This document shows, one piece after another, positions 7,488-64,000 of a DNA stretch of 64,000 bases (within the stretch, counting starts at the first letter, position 1; every line of letters starts with the position of its first letter). Both the position numbers and the translations under genes were made by a program. The notes under the pieces are model-generated. The model worked only from the letters and a program-made list of their open reading frames with translations. It did no database searches and was not told the origin of the DNA. Location of the stretch: positions 1 through 64,000 of the forward strand of contig NGBS01000906.1 in the NCBI GenBank assembly GCA_002245135.1, in the 5' to 3' direction. The stretch is from Proteromonas lacertae (taxonomy: Eukaryota).

Positions 7488-7598
7488 GATGTTTAAAAAG
7501 AAAATAATGAAATTACCAAAATTGACAAAAATTGACATAAAATGACATGGCTTGATATTCAAACAAGCTGAAACGACTATAAACGTATTTGAAAAATT

Positions 7599-29925: not shown

Positions 29926-32900
29926 TTACACATCTACAGTTTCTAATCTATTATTTGACTTATCTGATCTACTAGAAGCTTCTGCAGATTTATTTATATT
30001 GGATGATTTTGACTTAGATTTATGATTATCAGATTTTAAAGTATCAGATGAATCAGAAAACGTAGAATTCCTCAAAACCAATATTTTCTCATGCAATGTA
30101 GCTCCATCACTTAATCCAACAGTTAATCTATTATTGTTATTATTCTTCAATTCATCTTTACTATTTCTACTGTTACTGTTCGCTTTATTATTATTATTTC
30201 TTTCATTATAATCATCAGCTGCTGGAATAAATTCTTGTTCTATTGGACTACAGATACTTCCAAATCGATTGTTGTGAATGTTTCTTGCTGTTGTATTACT
30301 GGATGAACTATTAAAATACAATTAAATACAAATAAATACAGTTGTATTAATGATAATCTTTGACTTTCATGAGTGGATGGTACTAAATATGAACTTTTCT
30401 TTGATCTTCGCTGTACAGACATTCGTTTGGGTATAAGTGATCGTTGTGATTCATTTCCTGAACAATTTGGTGGAGAAATACTTCTATATATATATATATA
30501 ATAATAATATAAAATATATACGGTCCTTGTTCATATTGTATCTGTTGTTGCATTTGTGTTTGAGTCTTTATCATTTTACCATAATTTGCTCTTAATGTTC
30601 TATTAGTAAAACTACTGATATTATAATTATTATCATTATTATTGTCGTTATTATTGTCGTGATTGTTATTCATATTCTTTGAGGATCTTTGAGAAGATTT
30701 TGATTTTGATTTTCTACCACTAGAGGATTGAGATTCTTTAGCATTCTTTTCATTCAAATAGAACATATACATTTTCTGTGAATTAATTAAACTGGAAATT
30801 AATATATTAATAATAATCAAGCCAATAGCTTGAATAATAGTTCTAATTGTTAGATTATCACTTAAATAGATGGATGATGGTAATATTATTAAAATTCCAA
30901 AGAAAATCAATACAATTGAATAGGTTATTTGCATTGATTCATTAAAATCTCTATCAGCATTTCTCACTCTAAATGAAACATATAAAATAAATAACAATGA
31001 AAAACCATCGATCAACAACTCAATAACTGAACATGCAACATTATAATGACATGTATAGATAATTGTCATTTTACTTATATCCGTTTCTTTTTCATAATAT
31101 TCTGAAGTGATTTTGGGTGGAAATGCAAAATTCCAAATTACTACATAAATAACATAAACAATCATTATGATTAATATCATATATAATAAATCCATTGTTC
31201 TTGCACTGACTCTCTTTATTCCAGTATTATTCAACACTTTATGAACTTTCCAAGTCTTTGTAAATAGTGTAACATACAGTAATTTCACTGAAATAATTAA
31301 GAATAATAATTGATTTCTACACATATTCACACTTTCAGCTTGTTCAACAAAGTATACAGCGGATAATGTAAGTAAAATTGATGATAGACATATCATATAT
31401 ATAAAGAATAAAAATGATTTTCTGATGATTTTAGAATGACGATAATAAGTAGCAAATGTAACAAATACTATATTCAATAATATCGATATTCCACCACATA
31501 TTAAAACAAATACATGAAGTGTTTGTGAATATTGATAAGTTGATTTTGGTGCTCCAAAATATAGATTATCACCATTGTTATAATAATAATAAATATTATC
31601 TGTTTTGTATCTTTCAAGTATTGTTAAAGTAAGGTAATGATTAATCTGAGCAAAATAACTATCTGCTTTTATAATATTCTTATCAGTTACTTCTACTTGT
31701 TCAATTGTAGTTTTCACTTGTGTTGAATATAATATATATCGAATAATATCTTTATCTATGTAATTATAATCATTATTATTGATATTAACATATTTCGGTA
31801 TTTGCTTTATTATTGTATCAATTGTATTAATTGTGGATGAAGTGTGATAGAGTAAATCATCAGGTTGTAATTGGTTATTAGACATCACTTTAATACTCTG
31901 GTTAAATTCATTCATCAATGAGTTAAAAATTGGATAATATGAAAACAACATGTAATGAGTATTTAAATGGTTTTGGAATTGTATAAATATATCGTAATTT
32001 GGATAGATAAATATCATTTTTATTGAAGAGTAATATAATCCAACTAGTTCATATGCATCAAGGAGATTCTTCATGCACTTTTCCTGTGAAATCATTACAA
32101 CAACTATTGATAATTATTATATATATATATATAATATATATACACGCCATTCTCCCACGTATTAAATAATATTCTCTCATTTTCACTGTTAATTCATCGA
32201 TTGCAGAAGGATTTGAACAATCATCAATAACAATATAATCCCTCATTCTGTAGGATGTATGATTCAATAATTCTTGTATAGTAACAGCTGTAAAAATAGA
32301 AATTAAAGAAAATAAATAAAAAAAATATATAAGTAAAAAATGATATATTTCATAATCTTTTGGTGCTAATATTGAATAACCATCTATTGCCAATTCTTCA
32401 AATTTCTTCATTAAAACATTAGCAATAAAACTATCGATCCAAGCAAATGGTATAATATTATATCTTAAGTTTTTATAACTGTAAATTCTACAGACATACA
32501 TCATAATTGTATTATCAAAATCATTTTGGACTTGTAACAAATCATCCATTGGTAATGGAGAAATATAACAGAAATAAGTGTTTTGATTAGATGACAAAAT
32601 ATCTCTTAATTCATCAATATACTTGTATTGTTTAACATATAAATTATAGTATATATCATTACTTTCTTGGTTTATTTTCGTTATTTCGTATTTCAATGTC
32701 ATATACAATCTTATATCAATATCATACTCACTTTCAGCTATAATAAACAACAATTTTATCTCTATTTTATTAAATGTATAAAGATATGTATTATCAACAT
32801 CACCATCATTATTTTCCATTGAGAATGAACAAAATAATTGTGGAGAATGAGTATAAGGATTATAATTCAACGGAACAATGGAATATTTCTCCACAAATTC

Positions 32901-35900
32901 AATTTCAAATGAGTAAGTCAAATGATATTCTTTTGTATAATTGTATTTCACCAACATATAATACTGTTGTACTAGCCTTGAAGGTAATAAACTAACATAA
33001 CCATAAGGACTTAGAATATTTAAATGTTTATTCAATAACTCACTCATTTCATTGTTATTATTAATACTTATAATATTTTGCAATAACAAAATACTCAAAG
33101 TTCCTATATAGATTGTAGAATCAATGATAAAATTATCACCAAATTCATTAACATATTTCATTAAGAAATTATTAGAAATATCTCTAAATTGGTATATAAT
33201 TTGATCAGAATTAGCTTGTAATATACTTCCAAAATAAGTGCCAAATAATCTGAATTTATTCAATAAATGACGTTTATCAAGTGATAAATGCAATAGAGAT
33301 AAGTCAGTTATAATTACTCTTTCATTTGGATCGAATATTGATAAAAATGATTCAGCAAATTCATCAGATATTTTAAATATATTTCCAAATAACAATAAAA
33401 TAGTTCCGTTATAATTCTGAATAAATGATTGGATTGATTGAATTGATGATACTTTTTCCCATTTCAAAACTTAAGGATGTGATATCATTATAATGATAAT
33501 TCAATAATATATCCCTTACAGATTGAACAAACTTAGCATGTTTGGCATTGTATATTATCACAATTTTCTTTGTTTTATCAAATAGATAATTGTTTATATA
33601 ATTTGTGAATGAATAAGGTAAATAATTAACAAAAAACACTTGTCTTTCACACACTTCACCAGCATGAGGGAATAAATAGAAGAAATATTTCATTCGTTAA
33701 ATAAAGTAATGGTAAAAAATACTTTTCTACAATTTCATAATCTGTTAAAACTAAATAAATTTGAATATTCGTTTTGCTAGTAAATATATTGATTAAATCT
33801 TTATAATAATAAGGTTTTGGTACAATAACTCTTCCATTTAATCCACCATTTGTGTTTATTTCAAAACATTCTCTTTGTATTGATATTATATATCCTTTTT
33901 CATAGTCTGATAAATCACTGAATTGATTCTGTATAATCACACCTATTGTTATTACATCTTTTGATGTTAAATAACAATAATTTGATCTTTTCATTTCTAC
34001 AGCATAGTTTAGATAAAGAAATTTATTTTTTTCTTCACTATAACCATTACATAATTTATAATCGAATAAAAATGGTTGACTTATTAATTTCTTATCTGTT
34101 ACAAAGTTTCTAACGTAATTTATTCTATCCAATACATTTGAAGGAGCAACTTTTATTATCCCAAATGGAGAAATTATTTCATTACTATAGAAATCATATG
34201 TTTTAATATCAAAACCAGAAATTGCTAAAGTATTCCTTAAAATATCAACGAATAGTATATTAATAAACTGATATTCAGCAAAATGTAGATTTTCTATATC
34301 TCCAGATAAATAATTAGTAATTAAACTATTAATAACATCATTATTCATTATATTATATTCATTATTAAAGTTGTTAATATAAACAGAATAATCTATTAAA
34401 TTGTAAGTTCCAATAATATAATTATTAATAAATGTTGGACAATTATCTAAATATTGCATTTGTCCTCTTTCTAATAAGTAATAATAAATATTTAAAATAT
34501 AGTCGTTACTCAATTTGCGATAGGAACACATCTCATCAGCAAATGATCCAACGGAATCATAATCTAAAATACATACAATTTCATGTACTATTTCTGTTTC
34601 AATATATCTAGCTATAAATTCATCAACATCATCAAATAGAGAATCTCTTGTCATTGGAATAAACATCAAATTATCCACTGGAAATTTGTTTATTATTTTA
34701 TCAACTAAATAATTGTTTACTTCTGAATATATAACGACTATATTTTTCTTTTCATATCCTTTTACTAAGTAATTTACCAACGGAATTAAGCTTTGAACTT
34801 CATTCACACCAATAATTGTATTCTTTGATATTTCACAATAACCAAACAATCTAAATGCAAAATAAATTATATTCGTTTCATTTATTGCTGGAATAACAAT
34901 TGGATGGTTCATATTTTGATAAACCACCAAAAATTGCAATTATTTGATTGTTATTTTTCTTATTAAACAACTTAATATCATCTACTGCTTCTTCTATATC
35001 TTCTTTAGCATGACATGGGTATGTTTTAATAGATAAACTGTTATAAGAATCTTCATTATCATATAGTGATATATAATGAATAGAGTTTATTAAAGTTAGA
35101 AGAATTGGTCGAGTTAATATATAATCTCTTCTCTTTTGTACAGCTTTTGTATTGTATAAAACGGCTATATATTTTGGAATAGATGGAACTATTTTGAATT
35201 CTGAGTTACAAATCAAGCCGAAATATTCTGGTTGGTTCTTAGAATAAGATTCTGAATATATTTCCATATCATTACTATATTTCTTTAATAACTGATATTC
35301 ACGATTATTATTGATTATCACTAAATACAGTGGATTTAACGTGTAATGATTCTTATTCAATCTCATTGAAATATTTGCGAATTTATATTCCATTTTATTT
35401 AAAGTCTTTCTCTCCAATATTTCATTGTAATTTGTTGAATTATGAGCTTCAACAATAGAATTGTATAACATCAACTGGAAGTATCCTAAGTAACTGTAAT
35501 AATTGGGATTTTCACCATATAAAAGTGGATAAATCTCTTCAAACATATCATATTCATTCTCCATAAAGTTAGGAAAATAAGTTGAAATAGAGCATGCATT
35601 ATACAAATAATATTTTGGATTATTCATATAGGAAAATATACTAAAAGTACAGAAGGAAATTGTCCTATCTAAACCTCGAGTTGATAAGAAGTTAAATATA
35701 TCAACATCTAAATCATTTATTGTATTAATAACCAACATTTTATTTCCTGTAATTTCATCAAAATATGATTTTATTGAGTTTATTGTTGGGTTGTAGATTA
35801 TATCATAATTAATTCCTAAGATATTACACCAATATTTAAATGCTGAAGCATCTAATCCTATTTCACTGTTAGTTATTAATAAGAAATATTGATAATTCAA

Positions 35901-38900
35901 CGCATAATAATAATTCAATAAATTAATCCAATATGCATTAATAGTTGAAACAGTGGAAATGACATATTTATTACATATTCCAGATTCATAATTATAAGTA
36001 AATAATGGCAATTGATATTTAATTAATATTTGATTTATACTTAATACACAACTCCTTGTTAAACATCCAAACAAAGCAATTACTTTATTATTACTACATA
36101 ATGTATTAACTTCATTTAAAAACTCATCAATAAATACTTCGTAATAGATAATATGATAGTTTATAATATGATGTTTCAACTCATATAATGCAGTATAATA
36201 TCCTTTCAATATTTGAGTAGTAAAGTTATAATTTCTTTCTTTTATAACAACGATTATTTTGTGTGTATAGTTATCTGTATTATTGTATTCTTTTGATACA
36301 TTACAAGTTTGGTTTGATAATAATACATGATTAGAATAATAAAAAGGTTCAGGAATAATATAATCAGATGAATTATAGATTAAATTGATTGTATAAATTT
36401 CTTCTTCAATTATTAGTCCATTATCATTATTATTATTATTATCGCCATCTCCATCAATGACTATATTATCACCATCTCCACTATCTATTTCAATATTCAA
36501 TTCTCTATTTCTTCTTCTTCTTCTTCTTTCATTAGTATTATCATCATCAACAATAGTTGAATTATCAATTATCCATACATTCAATTCAAATTGGCCTATT
36601 CTCATTATTCTACTGAAATAATTTGATGATTTTAGTTGGATATTACCTTCAGGAGCATAATAAAATTGATCTATTTCTAATACACTTTGAGTGCGCATTT
36701 TGTGAAAATAATCTAATGCGATTGAAGCAAATTCATAACTATTGGATAATGTTAATAATTTCAAATGTGGAAATTGTACACAATTAGTGTATTGATCATT
36801 ATATTTCAAGCCATAGGTTTGAGTGATGGGTGTAATTATGCAATTATTGTCAATGTAATTAAGAATTGGAGCAACTTCAGTTTGTTGTAAATATAAATCA
36901 AATATTGTGAATGTATTGAATTTATCTTCCTTAACTTTACTGTATAGTCTATTTCTGTCATAAATTAGGTTTAAATTATAGATATCTTCATATACACCCT
37001 CATTATACTCTGTGCTTATTGCTAATATTACTACATTTATATCTTCCATATTTTCTACTAAGAAATTTGTTAATAATTTCAATTTGGACAAATTTGATAA
37101 TATGAATGACTGAACATTAGGAATGAAATGTTCAGTCATTATTGAATCATAAATCCTTGATATAAAAGACCTAATTGGTTTTGCTGATTTATCATATTCA
37201 ATTTCATACACTAAAACAGTTCTTTTGATGTTTTTCAACGCACAATATTCACCTATTACTTGTAATTTCTGATGTAATAATGACCCAAATATGTAAAAGT
37301 TACTATAATAACATTCTTCTTGATCAACATCGTAGAAGTAATAGAATTCAATATCTTTATCTTTAATTGTCTCTGCTATCATTTTTCTACCACTTTTACT
37401 AGGGATAACCTCCAAATATGGCAATTACCTTTTAATTCGATTAATTCTTCCACTGCTTCTTTTAAAGTACTTAAATCATCGGTTGTATCTTTATAAATCA
37501 TGAATAATGCTCTTCATCATCATCCAGTTGTCGATTTAGAAATTCAGCATTAGTAGCAAATATGATTGGCAAATCATTGTATACTGTTTGATATTTTCCA
37601 CTGAAAGGATGCAAAAATCCAATTTTCACTATTTTAATCTCTTTTTTGGTGAATTTACTTGAATCTGTGTCATTTGGTATACAAACATATCTACCATTAT
37701 TTTTAATAGAAGAAAATGCCATCTGTTTAAATGTATATGCATTACTATATAAATTGACATAATCGCCTGTAAATGAATTATATCTCAATATATAAGCAGA
37801 TATAGCTAAATACATATTATCAGTAACAATAGTATCACCTAAAGGGGTCCAATACACATTACCCTCACCAAAAATCAAACTTTTAATTTCTGTAAATTTA
37901 GTCGTTTCATAATTTTCATACCCCTCATATAGTATTTTGAATAAAGAATAACATATTACTCCTGTATCTGATGGAAATGATTTCATTGAAGTAAACGCAT
38001 CTAAATATGACAAAAATAGTATATTTTCAGGTAATTGATTATTTGGATCATAATTTGACATAAAAAACATATTATCTGGAATATTTTCACTTACTAACTG
38101 ATAGGATTTAGTTATAAATAAAGGAGAATAATATACAAACAGGTGATAAGACAAATACTCCGAGTCTTTATCATAATAAGAATAAAAAGCTTGAATGATG
38201 TTTGACAAAAATTCAAAATCTTCTGTTAAAACAACAATTATTCCACCTGAACTCATTGATATTCTTATATCTTGGAATATTTCATACATATTGTAATTAT
38301 TAACATCAAATTGGTAAGAATGAAAATTATAACTGAATATTGTCAATAATTTAGACAAAGAGTCTCTATAATCCATTGAAAATTCAGCATGAATCTAATA
38401 ACATATAAATATTATATCTCTGTTTTTGAGTAAGTGGTGAATTAATGAAAATTTCGGTATATGGTACAGACCCACCACGTATCACATGACTTGAACAAGT
38501 TTCTCCACCTGATTTATATGGATGAATTAGTGGAATATCATATTTATCCAGTAATTTATTATTTTCAAAAAATTCTACACATTTTGAAGTATAACAACCA
38601 AAAATAGTGGAAATATTGTAAGTGGAAAAAATTTCTTCTAAAGATGGTAGGAAAATTGAATAATCTTCCACTGATTCATTGATATACAGTATATGAGGAA
38701 CCTATATATATATATATATATATGTTAAATAATATATATATATACATAAACACTAAATGATTTTTCAGCCATCTCATAAATTGCCGTTTGGATTGAAATA
38801 ATATGCAAATAATCATTAACATTATCTTTATCATATAATATTAAACAATGAAATGTTTTGGTTAACAACAATTTATATTTTGCTCCACATTTATATCTTT

Positions 38901-41900
38901 CTATATCATCTAAATTATCATTTACATTATTGTATGTGATTGTTAATCTATGTGGAGGTTGAATAAATCCATTCTTATTGAAGGTAAATAAATAATAAGC
39001 ATTTATAAACAAATTAGACACTTTAAGTAATTCTAAAATATTGTTATAATAGTGTATTATTGATATTCTATTTATTGGAATTGACTTTAAATTTCTAAAC
39101 AAATAATCACCTTTTGGTGTTTCTATCTTATAAGTATTTAAATCAAATTCACTTTTATAATCTCTCAACAATAACAATCCAATATAACTATTAACAACAT
39201 GATTCTGTAATAAATAAGTACCATTGTAATAAAATACATTTAAATTTGTTAAATTCAATCTTAAACTATATTCTCTCATTGCATAATGTAATTGTCTATT
39301 TGCTTCATTATCTAATGAATTGTAATATGAATTAATGATATAAGAATCATTATAGAGTTGAGTATAATTATTATTAGCGATTAATACACTTTCATCTATT
39401 CTCAATAAGATTAAAGTCATATTATTATCTTTTGATTTTATTAACTTTGTCATTTCATTCAAATCAGTAGAATATAATGTTGAAATGATAAAGGTATTAC
39501 TACATTCATTTATTATTTCAATTATTTCACTAGAACTTGAATCATATTCTCGATGATGTTCTATCAATATTTTTTTAGGTTTATATCTTATATATAACAT
39601 ATTATTCTTTATTAATTCATAGATATTGTGAGTATACTTCCTATTATAACCTACTATACAAAGCTGGAATATTATCTTGTATAAATTGAGCATCATTATT
39701 GTTAATTAGTAAGTGATTAATTCCTGTTAATGTTTGCTCAATACTGTCACCTAATTGGACGAATTTTGAATTACATATTGATTCTGAATACCACCATGTA
39801 TTCATAAATGTAATGTTTGACTTGGTGATATATTCACGAATTATATCAATTACTTCATCTCTAATAAGGAATAAAATAAAATAAAATAAAGAAGAAGAGT
39901 GAAATATATATATATATATACTCAAATGCTCCAATAACATATGATTTATCCAAATACAAGTCAAATACTTCTTTATAACACTCCACTATCAATAACATCA
40001 CAGGTATAACTCTTAATTATTGGCATTTCAGCAAAATCAACATTCAAATATAAGTGTTGAATCACTGAATAAAATGGATCTAAGAATTGAGATGTGTATT
40101 TGGTTTTATCAGGAATAATGATTTTCACATGAACTAATGGAGTTTCTTCAACTATAATAAATAAATATAAATAAAAAGAATATAATAATTTATACTTTTC
40201 CCATTTTTTATATCACATAATGGCATACTCATTGTATCATAATTGTAATTGAAATTATAACTCTTCTGAGCTATCGTACTCATACTGACAATATTCAAAC
40301 TATCATCATCATCATCATCATTGAATGTATAATATGTAGGATAACCAATCACATTCAAATTACTGTCAAAATATAAATAATTTTTATCATTTGTTGAATA
40401 TTTTTCAAAGTATTTTTTATAAACTGATGAAATATACGATCCAGATTGATTTACAGAATAAATAATATTCTGTGAGAATGTATATGCCATTCTAAAATCA
40501 ATATTATTTTCATTGTTAATTTTTTTATTCTTTCTTTCCTCTATGAATTCATCTGGAAGTGGAATGTTGGGATAAATTGAAATGAAGAAATACTTTTTTA
40601 TTTTTATATGAAATGATTCAATTTTATAAGGTGTAGAATGACTAAATGAAAAAAATGAAACCATTTTACTATTACCTTCATTATATTCTTCAAAAAATTG
40701 TTTTGTACAATTAAAACCTTCTGTCCCATGTATTACTACAAATGGATCCGTTTCAGAATTTAAAATATTTAAAATTTCATTTAAAATTGTTACAATTCTC
40801 ATTGGTATGTAACTGTAAGAACTGAAAATGTATAAACTTTGATATTTCTCCATTTGTTATTAAATCTTTCAAATATTCACCATACCTTCCTTGCGAATAT
40901 ACTAAATAAGCTTTATATTTCTGACTACCCAACTGAGGTATAGTTTGGAAATGAAGAGTAAAAGAAAAAATATTGTGAATAAATATTGGAGTTTAAATAT
41001 ACGATATGATCATCACAAGTATTTGATTCAGTTTCTTCTACTAGGAAAATGATAATATTATGTTTATTAACGAAGGGAGTGAGAGTTGTAATGAAATTAC
41101 TATCGATTGCTGCTAAGATAGAAGTAAAATCATATCTTTGTTTCAATTCTTCAACCTAATAATGAATTAGATTTATATATATATATACCTGTTTTAGTAA
41201 TAATTCTGGTGTCTGAGATATACAGATTGGTATAATAATCATTTTAATCATATCAGAATCGTAGTTTAACCTCATTTCTTCCAATACATAATCAATTACT
41301 GAATATTTCTGTATTCTATTGGTATTCTTATAGCACATATAATTATTATAAATAACTAGTAAATAATGAAATGTATATATCCCATTTAACTGACATAATT
41401 CAGGATTATTTAAATCTGTTATAACAGGAGTATATTCTCTGATATCATTATCATCTTTGTAGTTATATTCAGTCAATAACTCAATTTTATTATTTCCATT
41501 CGTATTTCCATCACTTCCAACCATCAGGTAATAATTAGAATAGAAAAAATGGTTTTGATGGTAATAAAGTGTTATTTCTGGTGTAATTATATCAGTTTCA
41601 TATTTTTTATATATAATGGAATATTGAGGAAAATTATAGACTGTTACACAATCTAACCAATGTTTCATCATATAGTAACTAATATACATTGTACCAATAA
41701 TTTCATCAGAATTACCGTAGGCTTGTCTGTAGATTTGAGCAAATTCTGTATTTGTGTAGTTATACAGGTAATTCACTAAAATGTGGTAATTATTGGAGAT
41801 TTTGATATTAGGGTTATCAGTTGTATAAATTGACTCTACTGCATCGATTAATGAGTATATTTCCACTTTAGATATTATATCTGTCTTAGAATTCAACGAT

Positions 41901-42597
41901 ATGAAGAAATTTTCAGTATCTTCTTCCAGCAGAGTCAATATTATATTATATGAATCATAAGGAGTTGATGTTAGTATATTATCTATCTCTGTTATTGTAT
42001 TTGCTGCACTACTGAAATTAATAACTGAATATTCTTTTATTCTCCGTATGATTGAATAATAATTATTTTTTTCATTCAGCATATCTGATAATATATTTAG
42101 AGTAGGATTTCCTTCATAACCGACTAAAATTGTATATCCATTTAGTTCAGAAAGTACTATGGATAATAAAAACAATGATATATACACTTATATGCTTTAT
42201 GCAAAAACAATGCACCAAAATAAGCATTCTCTATACACTTATTAAACGTATAACTTTGTGCTACTAATAACATCGCTTTTTCTTCTTGATTCCTATCATA
42301 CACAACACTAACACATTTTTGATTTACTATTGAAAATATAACAGAGACTTTATTGGAATATAGCTTATCAACAGCTTCTTCACACGTCACATCACTTGTT
42401 ACATTCTCAATGTGTATAATAAAATTAGGCTTATAAATTGAAGAGTTGAATGCTAAAAGAATGGAGTTACTAACTAAATGACTGAAGTGACTAAATTTGG
42501 GTGAGAGATCTTGTAGGATACCAACATTTATATCATCTATATTTGCAAAAGTTGACAATAAACAACTGACAAACACTATAAAATTAAATAAATACAT
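29926..42597 (-). CDS. Giant class C (family 3) GPCR: signal peptide + ~9 tandem UrtA/AmiC-like periplasmic-binding (Venus flytrap) domains + 7TM + S/N-rich tail
   Basis: 7TM motifs RHSKIIRKS, LFTKTWKVHKV and RVRNADRDFNES. Repeated ligand-binding-domain motifs KIGFLHPFSG, TIFGCYTSKC, IALFGCLTRSC, GGETCSSHV, AGEVCERQV and EINTNGGLNGR. Segments are joined by short introns and single-base frameshifts. Confidence 0.8.
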
Positions 42598-52511: not shown

Positions 52512-52652
52512 TCTTATTTCACTCTTTTTTTATTTATTTGTGTTCTGGGGATGCGAAAAATAATTTTCGAAAACCTAAAGAAATGGAGTATTAAGAATGT
52601 ATATAAACGCTATTAAACTCTGCCTCACTTATCTTTTTAATAAATCTTGATT

Positions 52653-55600
52653 ATGTCAGTATATACTTATTATTTTACATCTATTTCATAGAGGTTCATT
52701 ATCCTTGCTGTTATTTTAGCATTTGCATCAATCGCTGTTGCTCAGGATCAAAAGTATTTTTAATTTTTATAATCAATAGAATGAACTTTGGTGGAGTACA
52801 TTTGGAAAGATCAGCTGATTTAAAGTCGAATATTGCTTTAGGAAAGATTACTTATGATAATTGGGATAAATGTGCAGAAGAGAAAGCTCATTTCTTAATA
52901 ATCTGTAAATTTGTTGATCATATTCCAGAAGAACGAGATTTCCATATTGAGAATTACGCTTGGGTTGAGTGTGAAGGAAATAAGATAAATATAACTCAAA
53001 AAGGTCGAAAAGATAATCTTTTCTCTTGTGAATTAATCCACAATGAAGGTCGAAAACAATATGATATGAAATACAAATCTCTTCCTTTGTTATCAAAAGA
53101 GTATGTAATAGAACGAGATGAAGATTTATCCAAATACCATGTTCGAAACAATTTAGCTTTAAACATGCCAGACTGTGATGCTGAGAAATCTAACTATGAA
53201 TTATACTGTGGTTTCTTTACTGATGTAGTAAAATCTGAAGAAGTGAAAAAATCCGAAAATAAACGAGAAATAACTGGTGATAAAACTCCTTTATCATTCT
53301 CTTCTAGTGGTATAGAAGATCATTATATAACATGTTATATATATCGATCATCTGATGGTAAAATAATCGATACTTACAGTTCAGGAACGCCTAGTTTAAA
53401 TATTGAGAATTGGTCAATGAAGATAGGAAAAGACTTAAGTAAATATGAATTGCGAGGAGATAATCGATTAGAATGGAAAACATGTAATATGAACAATGAA
53501 GTAATGGACTTTAGAATAACTTGTGGATTCTATAAAGATGTTCCAAGTCCATCTGATTTGCGAAATAGTTGGGAAATGGATATAGAATTAGAATGTGGTG
53601 GTTGGCCTTGGCAAGTGATGTGGACAAAAGATGCTTCTTACAAATACTGGGGATGTATGACCTATGATGGAAAAGATAAAGCTGTAGCTGATTTAAAATA
53701 TGTTGAAGCACCTAGTTTGATAATGCCAAATGCTGATTCAATTGAAGAGAAAGATAATAAATGGTATGTGAAAGATAAATTACAATTGAAATGGACTAAA
53801 TGTGAAGCAGAATCTAAAGATTATGGTTATGTATGTGAATTCTTCAAAAATATTCCAACATATGAAGAATTAATAGAAAAGAAAGATAAGATCGGTAATA
53901 TAAACTGTGTTGAAAACTCAATCGAAGATACATCTGATAATTTAAGTGAAGGATATTTAGTATGTGGAATATTGAGAAGATCAACCAATGATGTAATATC
54001 AATGGAATATATAAGTAAGAAAAGTATTGATATTCAAGAAATATCCATGTATAAAGATGATAATAAGATCTATGCAAATGGTGATATAAGATTGAATTGG
54101 GCTAAATGTGAAAATGAAAAGAATGATTATGAATTGATTGTAAACTTTTTTGATCATTCTCCCTCTGTAGATGAAGACTGGTCAGGTAAAAGTATTGAAA
54201 TAAGCTGTGATAAAACCAAAGTTGATCATGAATATACCTCTGATTTAAAGAAGATTCACTTTGTAGTAAAGTTGGTGAAGAAAGACAGTAAGATAGTATA
54301 TGATGTAGAATCAATAAAACTACCATCATTTGATATAAGTAAATTAAATGTATCTTTCACCAATAAATACCAAAATCATCGTATTATATCTGGTTTTATT
54401 CCAATTGATTTCCCTAATTGTGAACGAAATCATAATCAGTACAGTATAATCTGTGATTTCTCCACAACCACACCAACTTATGAATCATTAATGAATGGAT
54501 TTAAGAATAAGATTGTATGTGATGCTTGGGAATTAGAAGGATTAACATCCGTTGGAACAGATGATAGTGTATTTGGTTGTATGATGATTGAAAATGAGAG
54601 TAAAAAGCTGGTTGAATTAAAATCAATCGATTTCGATCCTCATCAAAGGTATGATTTATTAATTTTTATAATTCAATAGAATGGATTTCAGTAGTTTTGC
54701 TCTTTCAAGAACATCAGATTTAAAAACAATTAAAGCTGCTGGAAAGATTACTTATGTAAATTGGCCAAACTGTACTGCAGAAAAATCCCATTTCTTAGTA
54801 TTATGCAAATTCTTAGATCATGTTCCTAAAGAAACAGATTTTCATATCGAAGGTTATCAGAAAGTAGATTGTGATGGAAATGTATTTAATGTGTCAACTA
54901 CTGTAAAAGCAAATTCTGTATTTGCTTGTGAACTGATGCAAAAAGAGAATAGAAAACAATATGATATGAAATACAAATCTGTTCCAACATTATTAAAAGA
55001 ATATAAAGTAAAGAGAGAAGAAGACTTTTCCAAATTCAAAGCTGAAGGTATGTTAGGTTACACTTGGCCAGATTGTGATTTAGAAGTTCATAATTATGAA
55101 TTATTCTGTGGAATATTCGACAATATTCCCGAAACAGATGAAATCCGAAAAGAAGAATATAAACAAGCCATTACTTGCAGTGGAAATAAGATAAATTTTG
55201 AATCTAAAGGTGTTGAAGATCATTATTTGACTTGTTTAATATATCGTAAAACAGATGAGATGGTAATTGATAAAATCAGTTCAGGAACGCCTAGTTTAAA
55301 TATTGAGAATTGGTCAATGAAGATAGGAAAAGACTTAAGTAAATATGAATTGCGAGGAGATAATCGATTAGAATGGAAAACATGTAATATGAACAATGAA
55401 GTAATGGACTTTAGAATAACTTGTGGATTCTATAAAGATGTTCCAAGTCCATCTGATTTGCGAAATAGTTGGGAAATGGATATAGAATTAGAATGTGGTG
55501 GTTGGCCTTGGCAAGTGATGTGGACAAAAGATGCTTCTTACAAATACTGGGGATGTATGACCTATGATGGAAAAGATAAAGCTGTAGCTGATTTAAAATA

Positions 55601-57335
55601 TGTTGAAGCACCTAGTTTGATAATGCCAAATGCTGATTCAATTGAAGAGAAAGATAATAAATGGTATGTGAAAGATAAATTACAATTGAAATGGACTAAA
55701 TGTGAATCCGAACATGATGAATATGGTTATGTATGTGAATTCTTCAAGAATATTCCAACATATGAAGAATTAATAGAAAAGAAAGATAAGATCGGTAATA
55801 TAAACTGTGTTGAAAACTCAATCGAAGATACATCTGATAATTTAAGTGAAGGATATTTAGTATGTGGAATATTGAGAAGATCAACCAATGATGTAATATC
55901 AATGGAATATATAAGTAAGAAAAGTATTGATATTCAAGAAATATCCATGTATAAAGATGATAATAAGATCTATGCAAATGGTGATATAAGATTGAATTGG
56001 GCTAAATGTGAAAATGAAAAGAATGATTATGAATTGATTGTAAACTTTTTTGATCATTCTCCCTCTGTAGATGAAGATTGGTCAGGTAAAAGTATTGAAA
56101 TAAGCTGTGATAAAACCAAAGTTGATCATGAATATACCTCTGATTTAAAGAAGATTCACTTTGTAGTAAAGTTGATAAAGAAAGATAACAAGATAGTATA
56201 TGATGTAGAATCAATAAAACTACCATCATTTGATATTGGTAGTTTAGATTTCTCATTTACCAATCGGTATTATAATCATAGAATAATCTCTGGTTTTATC
56301 CCAATCGATTTCCCTAATTGTGAACGAAATCATAATCAGTACAGTATAATCTGTGATTTCTCCACAACCATACCAACTTATGAATCATTAATGAATGGAT
56401 TTAAGAATAAGATTGTATGTGATGCTTGGGAATTAGAAGGATTAACATCCGTTGGAACAGATGATAGTGTATTTGGTTGTATGATGATTGAAAATGAGAG
56501 TAAAAAGATGATTGGATTAGAATATGTCGAACTAGCAGGATTAATAATGGATGAGATAAAAATTAAGCATGCTGATAATAACAAAATCACAGTGAATGGT
56601 TTATTAAAATACAAATTAGGAAAAGATGCCAAAGCTGAAGATTTCCATTATGAATGTAAATTATCAAATGAACTTCCAACTCCATCATTATTCGATTATG
56701 AAAAGAGTGAGATAATAAATGTAGAAGGAAATGAAGTAAACTTCTTTGAAGAATCTAATGAATTCTTTGGTTGTATTTTATATCGAGTAAATGACAAAGG
56801 AATAATCGATTTACAATATAAAGAATTACCTGAATTCAATGTAGAACATTTACACTTGGAAGTGAATAAGAAAGATAAAGTGTGGGTTCCAGAAGGTGAT
56901 ATAACATATAAATGGTCTAGTTGTGGTATTAATAAAGATAAATTCGAATTAGCTTGTGAATACAGTGATAATGAACCAAGTTCTGTGAATTTAGACAAAG
57001 CTAGTAAATTTGATATTGTTTGTAGTGGAACAAATCTTACTTCCTTTACTACTGATCTAAATAATGAAGTTTACTTGGGTTGTTCTTTAGTGTCAAAAGA
57101 TGATAAAGAAGTTTATGATTTCCATTTCATCAAAGGAAAAGAAAGTCATGATAGTGATTCTTCAAAAGTATGGATGATTGTTGTTACTTCTGCTTCTTGT
57201 GTCATTGCATTCCTTATTATTGTTACATTGGTTTGTTTCTTTGTCAGAAGTATGAATCTTAGAAGAAGAAAGAATTTGGATGAAAAGTCTGACATTGCTG
57301 CTGAGAAATCATTACTAGCTAATGAGCAAGCTTAA
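52653..57335 (+). CDS. Type I membrane surface protein (~1,500 aa) built of ~100-aa Cys-containing repeats
   Basis: Signal peptide MSRFIILAVILAFASIAVA after splicing. Introns 52754-52779 and 54649-54679 join the ORFs in frame. Repeat pattern W..C....Y...C.F...P...C. TM helix WMIVVTSASCVIAFLIIVTLVCFFV; short tail ending EKSLL. Confidence 0.85.
53377..56507 (+). repeat. Near-identical direct repeat pair 53377-54607 / 55277-56507 (offset 1,900 bp) inside the surface-protein gene
   Basis: Line-by-line identity apart from a few substitution patches. Confidence 0.95.
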
Positions 57336-57448
57336 GATAAAGGTATCACTTGGTTTATCAATATGTGTTTTTATTTTAAAAAGACATTTATTCGTTTCAT
57401 ATAAAATACTTTACTTATTCTTAACCTTCTCGCCTTTTTTTGCACGAA

Positions 57449-58523
57449 ATGATAAATAATCGAGTACAACCAGATTATGGATTGAATGATACTTCTATAA
57501 ATAATGCAAGATATATAAATTGTAAATTTGTTTATAATTATACCTTAGATAACAATGAGGAAATAAGCATGATCTATAAATATTTTTATAAGAACGCTAT
57601 ACCCGATGAAAAGTATTAAATTATTGTTCTGTAATTAAACAGTGGTGAATTGTTTATGCCTACATGTAACATTATACTGGATAGTAAATTCAGCAAATTT
57701 GAGATCACATGTAATATATTTGAACCATTAAGTATTGATTAACAAAAATTACATTGAAATAGATGTTATAGAATGGAATGATTTCTTTCAGATATGGAAT
57801 ATTCTCTGCTTTTTCCCTAATAAGTATTGCTTAATGTGTATACATGTAAAAATATATAAAAATATTAGTTTTAATTTCAACATTAAAGATTTCTCCCTTC
57901 TCAATGATATCAGTCGTATATAATTATTTGGAATATATACTGGCTAGGATGATTTAATGAGATTTATATCAAAAGCAACAAATTACAATGATGAAAGTAT
58001 AAGGCAAGTGTTTAAAGAATTTGAAGTGTATAATAAATCATTATCAAATGCATATAGAGCTGCAGATACTTCCTGTAATATGAATGTTGTTATTAGATTG
58101 TTTAAGAAAGAGAAAAGACTTCATAATTCGTTGAAAATTCTAAGGAAACAGTTCAGAAGTACTATATTCAATAATTTTATGGTAAATCAAATAAAACAAA
58201 GAAGTAAGGTTATTAGAAGAGGTTGTAATACGATAAACCATTCTAAAGAATCAATTTTTCATAGATTGCAGGGATTATTGTACAAAGCTCCACCATTATA
58301 TAAGTTTGATTATACTATATATCCTGATAATGATAGTTACGATAATGAATCAGTTCACAGCTTTCTATATTATTTCACTGATTTGACTATAAGTAGGTTT
58401 TATATATACAAGCCTAGGATAAGAAGCTCAAGAAAATGCGATAGACAATCGAGAAAGCCTACTTTCCCTATAGTTAACACTCACAAAACATCTCCACCTT
58501 CTGAAAATAAAGCATCACCTTAA
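57449..58523 (+). CDS. Hypothetical multi-exon protein, probable paralog of 50182-51496; 5' end uncertain
   Basis: IEWNDFFQIWNILCFFP vs LSWNDYLKLSLLFAFCP; PPLYKFDY vs NPYHYDY; last exon is ORF 57957-58523. Confidence 0.55.
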
Positions 58524-59196
58524 AGTGTGTGTTTCGAGTTACTCTTTACAATTAAATATATGTATAACCGTAAGAATATCACTGTATGTGGGTAAACCGT
58601 ACCAGACTATTCTTAGGTGCCTTCTACAGATAAGAATAAGCGATTTGAGTGTGAATTAGTTTTTGGTACGGGTTATACTGGAGCAAGCGGTGAATTTAAA
58701 ATTCTTTATATATTTTAGTGTGTGAATAAATTTATGGGTTAAAATTTATTTTTATATTTTTAATAGTTTTTAGAGTAGGATAGTAGAAATAAAGTGTATA
58801 AATAGATAGGTAGCTACCTGTTCTACCCCGGCAGGGTAGCTACTTTATAGAATAAGAAATGTATTTCTATGTAAGTAAGTAGCGTGTCCTGTGTAGCCTG
58901 ACTAGGACTTAGTGATTAAATAGTGTGGTGGCCAAGCTACAGAATGCGTTCTTACTTTTTTTTGGTTTTTTTTTTCATTTATCAATTTATTTATGGATTT
59001 ATATAGTGTAGTTAAAAACATTCAAAAGAATTTAAATAGTATCAAAAATATATATTTAAAGAATTATCTGCAGTATTCTATATTTTTTACTAAATCGAAA
59101 TTCTGACGAGAAACTGTTGTTATAAACAGAAAAAAGAAACAGTTTTGATTTTCCTGATATTTTAGAAAAACCGTTTTTATCAAAAAATATATAAAT

Positions 59197-59653
59197 ATGT
59201 GTGCTTCAGTAAACTTTGCTTTCTTTTGTTCATTTAGAAATAATGAAGATTATTTAGATAAGTGTATATGTGGAACATGTAAGTTTTACTTATATTTTAA
59301 CCATAACATAAGTGCAGTTTTAGATAGCCCATTACCAAAGGAAGAGATAAAGTCTTATAATGAATTCTGTGCTATTTGTCATCAAAAGATGTGGACTAAG
59401 TATAGTGATAAGAGATATTACATGATGCTTTTCGATATTAAACCATCAGTAAAACCAAGAGGATTAAATAGACATTATTAAATGGTTAACACTACCTGAA
59501 GGAATGGGAAGTGTTCATTTGAAGAAGAATCCTATGTTGAAACATTATGTAAAGAAGAATTATATATTTGATGATAGTGATGATGATGAGGAAGAAGAAG
59601 CACAAGAAGAAGTTAAAGGAAACAATGATCAAACTACGATAAACATACTCTAA
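59197..59653 (+). CDS. Putative viral Cys-rich (zinc-binding) protein with acidic tail; one frameshift near 59467
   Basis: CICGTC and CAICH motifs. Removing one A at GGATTAAATAGAC extends the frame to DDSDDDEEEEAQEE...* at 59653. Intronless. Confidence 0.5.
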
Positions 59654-59788
59654 ATTTTAAAACGAATCTTTATCTTAAAATGATTTGGGACAGGGTTTAA
59701 AAATATGCGTAATTTAATAAAAATCATATAATATAATAAAAATATAATAAATTTTATAATAAACATAATAAAATAATCATAATAAAGA

Positions 59789-60574
59789 TTAAAATGGTTC
59801 TGTAACACCTGTATCCATCCACTCTGTTATAATAACTTGAGGTGGGAATGCTTGATATGAATATGCATCAAGACCTTTTCGTTCTATATAAAGATTACAT
59901 TTATTATTATTATTTCTTAATATAGGCCAAAAACATCCATAATCATTAATTGCAGGTTGTGAAGTTTCATTTATTACACCTTGTATAGGGAAGTATATTC
60001 CATTACTACCATCTACAAAGTATGTTTCTAATAATTTGTTATAATATTGTTGCAATAAATCTTCTTTACCTGGTTCAGCTTTAATAACATGATTGTCATC
60101 TAGATATAATATAAATCCATAACCATCATCATGATTTTTTAAAACAAGGCCATTGTATATCTTGATTCTCATAAAATGTTCAAACATTTGAATTTTTATA
60201 GGTACTTTTACAGTAGATTCATATTGATTGATGGAACCATCTTGAAATATATAGAAATTAACTGACCAATATGTATATTCAGTATGCAATAATTTAGGTG
60301 ATACAGAATTATTAACTATTGTAGTACTACCTCCAGAGCTATTATTTACAACATTATATATTTCTTGACATTTACCATATATAGTATTTGTAGTAGTTTT
60401 GATATCATTAACAGGTGTAATAATATTATTTATTTGAGTATCAGTATGATTATTAATAGGTTTAACAATAGTATCAGGATCAGTAGGTTGTATATTTATT
60501 TTGTCAGCTATATCTTTAGCAAGCTTATCTGTATCAATATTTATATCTGAAGTATTTCGTTCCCCAATAAACAT
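59789..60574 (-). CDS. Putative viral protein, possible fibre/spike (~260 aa)
   Basis: ATG at 60574 (MFIGERN...), directly downstream of the ATPase. N/T/I/D-rich N-terminal stalk-like part, SSGGS linker, aromatic beta-rich C-terminal domain. Confidence 0.5.
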   Translation of the reverse strand: MFIGERNTSDINIDTDKLAKDIADKINIQPTDPDTIVKPINNHTDTQINNIITPVNDIKTTTNTIYGKCQEIYNVVNNSSGGSTTIVNNSVSPKLLHTEYTYWSVNFYIFQDGSINQYESTVKVPIKIQMFEHFMRIKIYNGLVLKNHDDGYGFILYLDDNHVIKAEPGKEDLLQQYYNKLLETYFVDGSNGIYFPIQGVINETSQPAINDYGCFWPILRNNNNKCNLYIERKGLDAYSYQAFPPQVIITEWMDTGVTEPF

Positions 60575-60617
60575 TTTTTGAATTAATAAACAATAAAATA
60601 ACAAAATTAATAAAACA

Positions 60618-61381
60618 TCAAGAAACTTCAGAATGATCTTCAATCAAAATATTAAAGTTAGCTCTAAACACTTTTTTAACATTATCAATATATAAGAAGT
60701 TATATTGTGGCTTAGTAACAGCTAAATATAACTCTTTAAATGTTTCATATTCAGGTATCCATATATTCAATGAGTTGTATAAGTCAAACAAATTTCTATT
60801 ACTCAATCCATAAAATGTTAAACAATAATCTACTTGTGATCTTGCTGAAGGTACTATATCAGTAATATATTGACTACTAATTATAATTTTTGATTTTAAA
60901 TGTCTATTTTCTTTCATTAATACTGGTATGATATTAGCTGTTTTCAACTCTAAACTAAGATCATCAAATATTATAATATGTTCTGCATACTCAAAATTAT
61001 CTTTGTTTGTATCATCAATTGATTTCATTAACTTCTCTACTAAATTATCTCCTGAATAAGGTTCAAATAATGAATCGTTTTCATCATAACTAATTTCATT
61101 ATAATCTAATAACTCTTTAATTGAATCATATATCCTATCTTGTTTAATTGTGCCTACGAAAAAAATGTACATGTTGTTTTTTCTTATATTTTGGATCTAT
61201 AATATGTCTTAATATATTGTATATCAAAGTAGTTTTCCCACTGTTCTTACGAGCTACAATAAATATATTGCAGAAAGGCTCATTAAAGTAATCATATCCC
61301 AGAATTTTCTTAGGATCAAAAGACTCACCCACCATCAACAGGTTCAATTTGTATATTATTTATTTTTTCAAATTTAAACAT
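60618..61381 (-). CDS. A32/FtsK-HerA-type viral DNA packaging ATPase, two +1 frameshifts
   Basis: Reconstructed MFKFEKINNIQIEPVDGGESF...NIFIVARKNSGKTT (Walker A)...IIIFDDL (Walker B)...ENRHLKSKIIISSQY...ARSQ. Shifts at GGG (~61329) and the A7 run 61159-61165. Confidence 0.9.
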
Positions 61382-61451
61382 AGTGTGTGTATATATATAT
61401 TATGTAGTGAGAAATCAAAAATAAAAATAGAAGTCAATAATAAAGTGTTAT

Positions 61452-62872
61452 TTATACTACTTTTCTCAACACCTCTTGGTCCAATAACTAATTGTTTACC
61501 TGTAATAATATAGAATTTATGATGAATTGTATAAGTATTTTTTGCAGTATCAAAATCATGATTTGAGCAATCCAAAGTAATTTTTAAATCACTTGCTAAG
61601 TCTTTACCAGCTCTTAATTTTAATTCAGTTAATCGATCAGTACTGAAATTTAATACATCAAAGAATCTATAAGGAATGAATATGCTGAACATTTTTCATA
61701 TAATGTATTTTGAATAATATTTCTCATATATTCCCAAGTTTGGTATTTTGCAGGATATAAATAATCAGGAGTATAGACAAAATCATTAATTTGCCATCTA
61801 ATTCTATCTTCTTCTTTATCAAAAGGAACTATAGTTCTTATATAAGCATCATTTATGTATGCTCTGTATAATATAAACTTAACATAACTTCCAATGCTGC
61901 TATTAATACTGAAGTTATAGTTAAAAGTACTATTACCTGGAATAGGATCTTTAGTTATTTGAACTATGTTAAAATCAGTAAAGTCAATAGGATGATGAGT
62001 TGAATAATTGATGGTATTGGCATTGCAAGTTGGATCTTTGTTATAACAAACATAAAGATGAGGATTAACTATTTTCATTCCTAAAAATGCTTGCCATTGG
62101 TTTATATATTTATCTCCATCATTATGATGAACCCAATTCATTATAGGTGCAAATGTGAATTGTATGTATATTACTTCACCAAAATAAATATCATTCTTCA
62201 AAGCTAAAATAGTATTGTATATGTCTGCAAAATGAAATCTACACAGTATTTGACCATGTAATGTATCTGTCATACCATTTTGCATTACATAATAATTTTG
62301 AACACCTCCACTTGGATTTAATGTATTAGCTGAATGACATAATAAATTTTCACCTATTTTTTGATTTGCAGTATTAAATCCTAAACCATCAAATATTTTC
62401 TTGTAATAATCTGGTTCTTTTAAATCATAAGGAAATTGATTTGCAATTTCATGAGCTAAATCTCTATATTCATTATAACTAGTATCCAAATCACATAGCA
62501 AAGTTCCTGTTTTGTTGTATACTTTTAATGTACCAAAATTCATAGTATTCTTCAATGTTAGTTTATCTAAATTATTTGCACTAGTATCTCTTTTAGGTAC
62601 AAAAGGCATATCCCAATTACCTGAATCTGCAGCAGCATGAGCTCTAGTTTGACCTGTAGTATAATCTAATATGAATTCAAAATAGCTTTTGATAAGTTAA
62701 CACAATTATCACCAGATATTTCAAATGTAATAGCATCACTGTTTGAATTTAAAGATAAAACAGTCTCATTCCTGCTTTGGTTTGGAGTAACTAAAATATG
62801 GTTGTAAATTGGTATGTAAGCTGGCACAATGCTTTCATGCTTTTGTGAATTAGGTATAGCAGTGATTGACAT
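61452..62872 (-). CDS. Putative double jelly-roll major capsid protein (~470 aa), three frameshifts
   Basis: N-terminal ITFEISGDNCVNLSKSYFEF after restoring one base at 62687-62690; central LALKNDIYFGEVIYIQFTF; C-terminal GKDLASD...FYIITGKQLVIGPRGVE. Lies between penton and ATPase. Confidence 0.75.
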
Positions 62873-62925
62873 AATTTATGTTATTTTAAAAGATTAAAAA
62901 ATACTTAAAAATAGCAAGAAATTTA

Positions 62926-63892
62926 TTAATACAAAATAATCTCAAAATAAATAGGTAAGTTTTTTAAATAAATTGCATAACCATCTGTTGTGTGACTGAT
63001 ATAGTCATTCGTTGATATTCGTGATATTGCATCTTCTTAGCTGTCCATTCAATTTGTGGATTAGTGAATGTGGTGTAGTTAGTATTAAGATCTTTCACAG
63101 GTATGTTAGCTAAAACCATTGAATTCTCACCACTATTACCCAGTCACATCTAATTTGTATGAATGACACCCAAATTAAAGACGGTTGATTAGGCAATATT
63201 TTGTCATATTCTATATCAATATTATTAAAAATGCTTCAATTGGAGCTGCTGTATGATAAATATCTAACTTTTTGTTCATCTCATCTACACCATATAACTT
63301 ATAAACTAAGTTAGGGAATTCAATGCTAAAATCTGTGAAATATAATCTACCAAAATGAGTTAAGTATTTGAATTTTAAGTGTAATCTATTTTCTGAACTT
63401 TCACTAAATTGAAGTATATCTGTTTGATCATCTATTTTACGAAACGGATAGTTTTGTGAAAGATCTTCATCTGGCAATGGTCCTGCTGCACCTGCTATTT
63501 CTGCAAAACTTAACGATAGTAACTTATTACTAAAAAATTCTAATAATTCTTTACCAGTATAATTTCTTTGAGGTATTTTAGCATCAATAGTTTTATAATA
63601 AGGTCCAAGCTGATTCTCAGGTTTTTCCCATTCTGCTGGATTTGTTTTATCTGGATTTATGCATTCGTAGTAAGTGAAATTAAAGAGAATATGATCATTT
63701 ACTTCATCTTGTACTGTATAGAAGTTATTTGGAATAACTGCAGTAATTAACTCATATATTGATATTTTTCAGTAATAGTTGGAGTATTAATACATCTAAC
63801 CCATTTATTAGATAATTTTTCATTATAGTCTGATGTTGTTAAGAACAATGTTCTTCTATTAGCTAATATGTTGTTACTATCTTTGGTTGCAT
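62926..63892 (-). CDS. Putative penton / minor capsid protein (single jelly-roll), several frameshifts
   Basis: Reconstructed motifs LITAVIPNNFYTV, KIPQRNYTGKELL, IQIRCD, VLANIPV, FTNPQIEWTAKKM and TDGYAIYLKNLPIYFEIILY*. Confidence 0.75.
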
Positions 63893-64000
63893 TATGTTTT
63901 ATAATTGTTGAGAAATATTAAATATAATTTTATTTGAATTATTCTTTAATTATATATTGTTATATATATATGCAACCGCAACCTCAAGTTAACAATTCAA

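Follow-up and report, generated by a model that had tools for sequence, protein, structure and literature searches.

What occupies the last ~5 kb of the window, that is, of the whole 64 000 nt stretch of contig NGBS01000906.1 (assembly GCA_002245135.1) analyzed here, and why do its genes appear broken? An initial annotation had proposed an endogenous Polinton-like or MELD virus at this place. We favor, with moderate confidence, the reading that the region holds the block of genes for capsid and DNA packaging of a Polinton-like virus (PLV), that this block likely forms the left arm of a copy integrated in the host, and that the breaks in its genes are probably mostly consensus errors. The viral module fills the last ~5 kb of the window and adjoins intron-containing host genes. 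Four genes were observed in tandem on the minus strand, separated by spacers of ~45–75 nt and in the order penton-like gene, major capsid gene, A32 packaging ATPase and open reading frame (ORF) 4:

62926..63892, minus strand: penton-like (minor capsid) gene, putatively identified, ~322 aa when read through; breaks near 63874, 63755, 63227, 63140 and 62986
61452..62872, minus strand: major capsid gene, 474 aa when read through, with 3 breaks; identified from relatives and the predicted fold of a relative
60618..61381, minus strand: A32/FtsK-type genome-packaging ATPase, 254 aa when read through; breaks near 61328 and 61162
59789..60574, minus strand: ORF4, candidate fibre, 261 aa without visible break; residues 15–77 predicted as a trimeric coiled-coil stalk, plus a C-terminal domain

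The penton, capsid, ATPase and possible-fibre module that the initial annotation had claimed is present, in the form of an A32-type ATPase, a predicted double jelly-roll capsid family, and vertex and fibre genes that are likely. The three core genes, described there as tandem minus-strand genes fragmented by single-base indels, can be read through as proteins of 322, 474 and 254 aa, and the 474 aa agree with the ~470 aa expected for the capsid-like protein. The motifs ARKNSGKT, IIIFDD, RH..IIISSQ, IPNNFY and IPQRNY were all found on the minus strand. The NLSKSY-type capsid motif was recovered in part: the window encodes NLSK, after which a frame break is crossed, and the relatives carry NLSKSY or NLSKTY. 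The assignment to the PLV assemblage (Preplasmiviricota) is based on the ATPase sequence and the modeled capsid fold, the identity of the penton being putative.

For the C-terminal piece of the ATPase we found 43 relatives among 135 candidates, 11 of them with PF04665, and the read-through protein is 91.7% identical to the intact relative P0050. As the annotation had expected, the A32 assignment is borne out by the relatives: two of the four intact ones scanned passed the Pox_A32 cut-off, and the family profile matches the STIV B204 packaging ATPase (E 7.6e-5). The window piece alone reaches only E 0.012 against Pfam. Judged by these sequence comparisons the ATPase is of the A32 type. Members of the capsid and ATPase clusters have five exact longest-contig sizes in common (10216, 8989, 9425, 5898 and 2748 nt), so the two genes presumably share contigs and most likely travel together elsewhere. 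Intact members of the clade turn up across a range of public sequencing runs.

The 341-aa middle piece of the capsid has six relatives among 469 candidates, with 45–76% identity and all from Logan assemblies, and in tblastn the intact relatives tile the capsid and ATPase pieces of the window in order. A capsid profile search returned 178 proteins at E ≤0.001 and 12 at E ≤1e-30. When 127 long capsid-type proteins were grouped at 100 bits, 10 formed a group separate from 116 others. In a quick tree of 36 rows, with 21 sister rows chosen from 117, the 15 clade rows split from the sister rows with an SH-aLRT of 100, and the window capsid sits beside P0002 (75% identity). The intact relative P0004, which is 50.2% identical over 420 aa to the window read-through, was folded with 115 sequences (pLDDT, the predicted local distance difference test, 88.9). 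With this model Foldseek retrieved the PBCV-1, iridovirus, Sputnik and PRD1 capsids (best E 1e-13), and comparison with the PBCV-1 capsid chain gave a Z of 24.6 at a root-mean-square deviation of 4.2 over 363 aligned residues, while unrelated folds gave Z ≤6.8. Among the matches listed for P0004, the viral structures are each ≤13% identical. The double jelly roll that the annotation had expected was therefore obtained on this intact relative, and according to the model it is the fold of the capsid family. Cellular families lacking jelly-roll folds, which would have spoken against a virus, were not what the capsid and ATPase matched.

Capsid families of Pfam (including Capsid_N and Capsid_NCLDV) were found in none of the 43 relatives scanned (of 115 in the alignment) and not in the window piece, and the capsid profiles gave no match by sequence in PDB. 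The clade has a sister family of 440–470-aa PLV-type capsids (P0090–P0223), which is colinear with it over 400 columns (hhalign 99.7%) and is reached by the clade profile with E from 1e-15, but whose best pairwise identity to the clade is 21–29%, with a long branch between the two and without the clade motifs. One full-length sister-family capsid, P0097, comes from the EukProt record of Lithocolla globosa; at least one member of the sister family is therefore expressed in a further protist lineage. The capsid gene at 61452–62872 contains 1 CpG where 27 are expected, and none of the 14 arginines in the capsid and ATPase pieces is encoded by CGN. The observed/expected CpG ratio is 0.18 in the coding sequence of the element and has a median of 0.48 and a minimum of 0.20 in the host (109 windows). 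This scarcity may reflect methylation pressure on the element.

The penton-like gene is assigned by position, size and frame continuity, and it contains IPNNFY and IPQRNY, which we take to resemble motifs of Polinton-type pentons. No relative was found among 46 candidates, and for that reason its five breaks are placed by frame continuity alone. Compared with PDB by sequence, the protein gave no meaningful match. Its 179-aa middle piece was folded without an alignment; the model is poor (pLDDT 45), and neither BFVD nor a set of 48,161 PDB chains contained a matching fold, a blank that at this model quality does not show a different fold. ORF4 was folded in three copies. Its homotrimer score of 0.39 (pLDDT 45; runs agree in at least 52% of contacts) compares with 0.00 for the best control, and a calibration on two copies put 21 of 30 solved pairs and 0 of 23 single chains at or above this mark. 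The predicted interface is limited to residues 15–77, a heptad-patterned stretch. The fibre guess of the initial annotation gains weak support from this test, with an interface formed by the coiled coil alone; ORF4 fits a fibre stalk without demonstrating one. Searches in the Atlas matched ORF4 to unnamed viral clusters (0.85–0.88), which we regard as a lead only; no match was found in phages, and the PHROG matches were weak only.

From what is known of Preplasmiviricota, capsid trimers would assemble the icosahedral shell, the penton-like protein would seal its vertices, the ATPase would drive the linear double-stranded DNA genome into it, and a trimeric ORF4 would serve as a host-binding fibre. 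A polymerase or helicase and an integrase would lie past 64000. In 58524–64000 the ORF list and Pfam revealed no pPolB, helicase, RVE integrase or tyrosine recombinase, and no Ulp1-type protease is visible there; no Rfam family was found in 57000–64000.

Between the host genes and ORF4 we observed three further features:

57449..58523, plus strand: last host gene, flank outside the element; intron-containing, an open frame resulting when GT-AG introns of 30, 31 and 45 nt are removed
58524..58960, no strand: non-coding, GC-richer, self-complementary stretch; candidate left terminal repeat by composition and fold
59197..59653, plus strand: Cys-rich ORF (94 aa, to 59481) and acidic tail in another frame (59468–59653), from the ORF list and translation

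A fourth intron in the last host gene requires an AAG acceptor and must be at least 60 nt long; the last exon of the gene has no Pfam family at 1e-3. Further upstream, the host gene array encodes CK2 beta (introns of 26 and 39 nt), a kinesin, a calpain, a nucleotide cyclase and EGF proteins. The stretch at 58524–58960 has a GC content of 0.33, a value above the 0.30 that is the highest among 62 overlapping windows of non-coding host DNA, and it folds as DNA with a z of −2.65, equaled by 0 of 100 shuffles. It contains short inverted repeats (58562/58671, 58597/58664 and 58808–58843) and has no second copy in the window; we infer that it may be a terminal repeat. PLV genomes are linear, 14–40 kb in size, and bounded by terminal inverted repeats and a target-site duplication; of these traits the window shows a candidate left end only. 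A short AG/TG repeat at 58524–58531, directly after the host stop codon, opens this candidate end of the element. Polintons have ends with simple AG-type repeats. The left boundary of the element is only approximate. Base composition is alike on both sides, the third-position GC content being 0.11–0.16 in the element and 0.09–0.22 in the host. Based on contiguity, matching base composition and analogy, the element is probably inserted in a host chromosome, the host supposedly being an Opalinata gut stramenopile. The Cys-rich ORF, which is absent from the initial annotation, would belong to the element by its position between the candidate left end and ORF4, and with the acidic tail it probably forms one accessory gene with one break. 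It has no Pfam family at 1e-3 and no PHROG. In the accessible part of Starrett et al., the zinc-binding 'Oncoid' genes of MELD viruses are loosely like it; no LXCXE motif is visible.

A capsid type of this kind has likely been catalogued, but not described, in Proteromonas, as far as can be judged from sequence motifs and from those parts of Bellas et al. 2023 (PMC10120064) that were available. For Proteromonas lacertae their data give 285 capsid hits, placed in one cluster that is labelled 'new' and has no name and corresponding to an estimated 5.7 Mb or 11% of the P. lacertae assembly, and the capsid count is blank for 10 of 10 Blastocystis assemblies. By column count the Proteromonas cluster is cluster 25 in Tables S3–S4, clusters being defined there by identities of 25% or more across 30% of the length. 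The printed P. lacertae representative (Table S3), read by eye, carries all five capsid motifs of the window clade. Those motifs occur in 8–11 of 15 clade proteins and in 0–2 of 117 sister proteins, and two of them occur once each, in the P. lacertae entry, among the supplement entries listed. The only named member of the window's capsid clade that was found is from P. lacertae, which lends indirect support to the gut-stramenopile host guessed in the initial annotation. The window capsid and the P. lacertae capsid further resemble each other in length (450 aa) and in having the PBCV-1 capsid as best Foldseek match, and several of the listed gene calls are short (304–371 aa), comparable to the 341-aa piece of the window; by eye, however, the printed representative is nearer to the P0085 branch than to the P0001–P0006 branch of the window. 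Most likely, on these sequence grounds, the window element is a member of the Proteromonas-type capsid clade. The word 'Proteromonas' is absent from the main text of Bellas et al. 2023 (PMC10120064), and Proteromonas PLV capsids appear in a network figure in the available part of a 2026 preprint. For gene order, ATPase, penton or fibre of this clade no published description was found in the literature searched. With this locus, a capsid cluster that was known solely from supplementary rows acquires a gene order, an ATPase, a likely penton and a candidate fibre. None of the viral contigs, metagenome contigs and prokaryote genomes searched yielded a confirmed related locus; of two scans with Walker A patterns, one returned 0 loci and the other 39, with an ATPase or capsid of these families in 0 of the 39.

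We observed 10 breaks in the 3129 nt of the three core genes (five in the penton-like gene, three in the capsid gene and two in the ATPase gene) and no in-frame stop; their net effect is seven losses and three gains of one base. Introns were rejected as the cause of the capsid and ATPase breaks, as no GTA..YAG candidate lies over 7 of the 10 breaks and two other candidates fall in sequence aligned to intact relatives. One GTA..YAG candidate lies at a penton break, where no intact relative exists for alignment. In the host, 11 ORFs chosen for length and totaling 24,039 nt are unbroken, and the longest (3954 nt) would survive the break rate of the element at P 3e-6; the indels are therefore confined to the element. 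A virus family present in multiple copies in the host would explain why they crowd only the viral part of the contig. For multi-copy viral insertions, the available parts of Bellas et al. 2023 (PMC10120064) describe false frameshifts created by polishing. Of the columns that are invariant in relatives, 0 of 68 are changed in the ATPase and 4 of 51 in the capsid, where the intact relatives range from 1 to 14. Because of the missing stops, the unchanged ATPase columns, the long unbroken host ORFs and the reported polishing artefacts, we lean to consensus error over decay as the source of the breaks.

Several observations weigh against this reading as a whole. The pooled 4 of 119 invariant columns that differ are also compatible with decay at a ratio of 5 substitutions per indel (4.3 expected, P 0.57), the absence of stops has a P of 0.38, 0.09 and 0.008 at an assumed 2, 5 and 10 substitutions per indel, and the share of breaks that fall in homopolymers is not significantly raised (4 of 10, P 0.11; nine breaks were tabulated and the tenth was added by eye). 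Within the window, no terminal-repeat pair or target-site duplication is visible. The double jelly roll was predicted for P0004 and not for the window's own capsid protein, the trimer test of ORF4 was calibrated on two copies and its pass depends on the coiled coil, and the five clade motifs were picked after the Proteromonas sequence had been seen, so that the link to that cluster consists of motifs and comparison by eye, not of identity. Some of these points would be expected if the same integrated virus had truly decayed, its breaks being real mutations and the copy no longer able to make particles. This we regard as possible though doubtful. Ten breaks beside clean host ORFs and the agreement of the changed columns with 5 substitutions per indel speak for decay, the near absence of CpG from the capsid gene could reflect methylation-driven loss, and fragmented PLV remnants are known in Halocafeteria from the available part of the source. 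Against a decayed copy stand the lack of any in-frame stop and an ATPase that retains 68 of 68 invariant columns and shares 92% identity with an intact protein. The four differences of the window capsid equal the count for the intact P0003 (4 of 51), no break is visible in the 783 nt of ORF4, and host coding DNA is CpG-poor too (0.17–0.56).

The sharp change of indel rate at the element, the missing terminal-repeat pair and target-site duplication, and the awkward fourth intron in the flanking host gene would also follow if a free or co-sampled PLV, or a copy from another locus, had been joined to the host contig by the assembler, and intact relatives are indeed found repeatedly on short contigs, one ATPase on as many as 59. 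We consider such a mis-join unlikely, as base composition and third-position GC content match the host, a distinct terminal-like stretch lies between the host gene and the viral genes, and the named clade member is present 285 times in a protist assembly according to the available source. Very improbable, in our view, is a fragment of a giant virus (Nucleocytoviricota) or a virophage in place of a PLV. It is suggested by the best fold matches, which are the PBCV-1, faustovirus and iridovirus capsids, followed below PBCV-1 by the virophages Sputnik (Z 19.5) and mavirus (Z 18.8) at 7–10% identity, and by the Atlas, which gives capsid clusters of nucleocytoplasmic large DNA viruses at 0.95. Against it, every fold match is at ≤13% identity, none of the 43 relatives scanned has a capsid Pfam family, the contigs that carry sister-family capsids reach 16.7 and 19.0 kb, and two papers, in their available parts, class Proteromonas capsids as PLV-type. 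The integrated PLV with mostly erroneous breaks is thus the reading that we retain.

As a module this is textbook material, and protists commonly contain endogenous PLVs. According to the available part of PMC11161782, Polintons/Mavericks and virophages share a module of capsid, minor capsid and A32 ATPase; they also encode a Ulp1-type protease, and Polintons in addition pPolB and an RVE integrase, none of which is in the window, although they possibly lie past 64000. A Blastocystis MELD virus with pPolB and integrase was reported by Starrett et al. 2021 (PMC8502044), and a 'Blastocystis MELD virus 3996' is named in a 2022 preprint (10.1101/2022.05.25.493380), each source being available in part. 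Like the virus proposed here, the Blastocystis MELD virus is a mid-size linear double-stranded DNA virus from a gut stramenopile dataset whose virion proteins are recognizable by profile methods only, but its pPolB and integrase fall outside what is visible in this window. One MELD protein in the fold search listing is 12% identical to the capsid and may or may not be the Blastocystis one. In the accessible part of Bellas and Sommaruga 2026, MELD viruses are folded into PLV groups and replication modules are freely swapped; the right arm is therefore not predictable from the capsid. With the capsid cluster of Bellas et al. 2023 and the Blastocystis MELD virus already in print, the novelty supposed by the initial annotation has to be lowered: the capsid cluster and the Polinton-like module are known, and what is new is a member of an undescribed clade together with its gene content.

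Few eukaryotes in vertebrate guts are as common as Blastocystis and its relatives. In the literature searched, publications on their DNA viruses are nearly absent. The part of the Blastocystis genome paper that was available reports introns of 30 nt in human strains and longer introns with 21–23% GC in tortoise strains, and does not mention Polintons; the short introns and low GC content of the window are compatible with this group. Tentatively, and as a proposal that we consider more doubtful than probable, the copy may be intact in the cell and part of a virus lineage that has not been described, is still active, has gut stramenopiles (Proteromonas and Blastocystis) as hosts and circulates in the guts of vertebrates. 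If so, the intact relatives from many sequencing runs would be other members of an active gut lineage, and there would be a handle for asking whether Blastocystis-type protists have an inducible DNA virus. Egoviruses are described in a preprint as the only abundant clade of eukaryotic DNA viruses known in the animal gut, and the proposed lineage would form a second group of eukaryotic DNA viruses beside them.

Elsewhere in the window, two long tandem ORFs on the plus strand (52607–57332) contain internal repeats of 300 nt at 92% identity and of 155 nt at 72%, each 1900 nt apart; neither ORF has a Pfam family. On the minus strand, a run of long ORFs at 30386–42597, one of them with weak periplasmic-binding-protein matches (E 2e-5), possibly represents one very large receptor-like gene with bacterial-type domains. 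An unbroken 1318-aa ORF on the plus strand (7593–11546), with a hydrophobic N-terminus and teneurin-like EGF domains, is likely a surface protein, and this is the most CpG-poor stretch of the host sequence.

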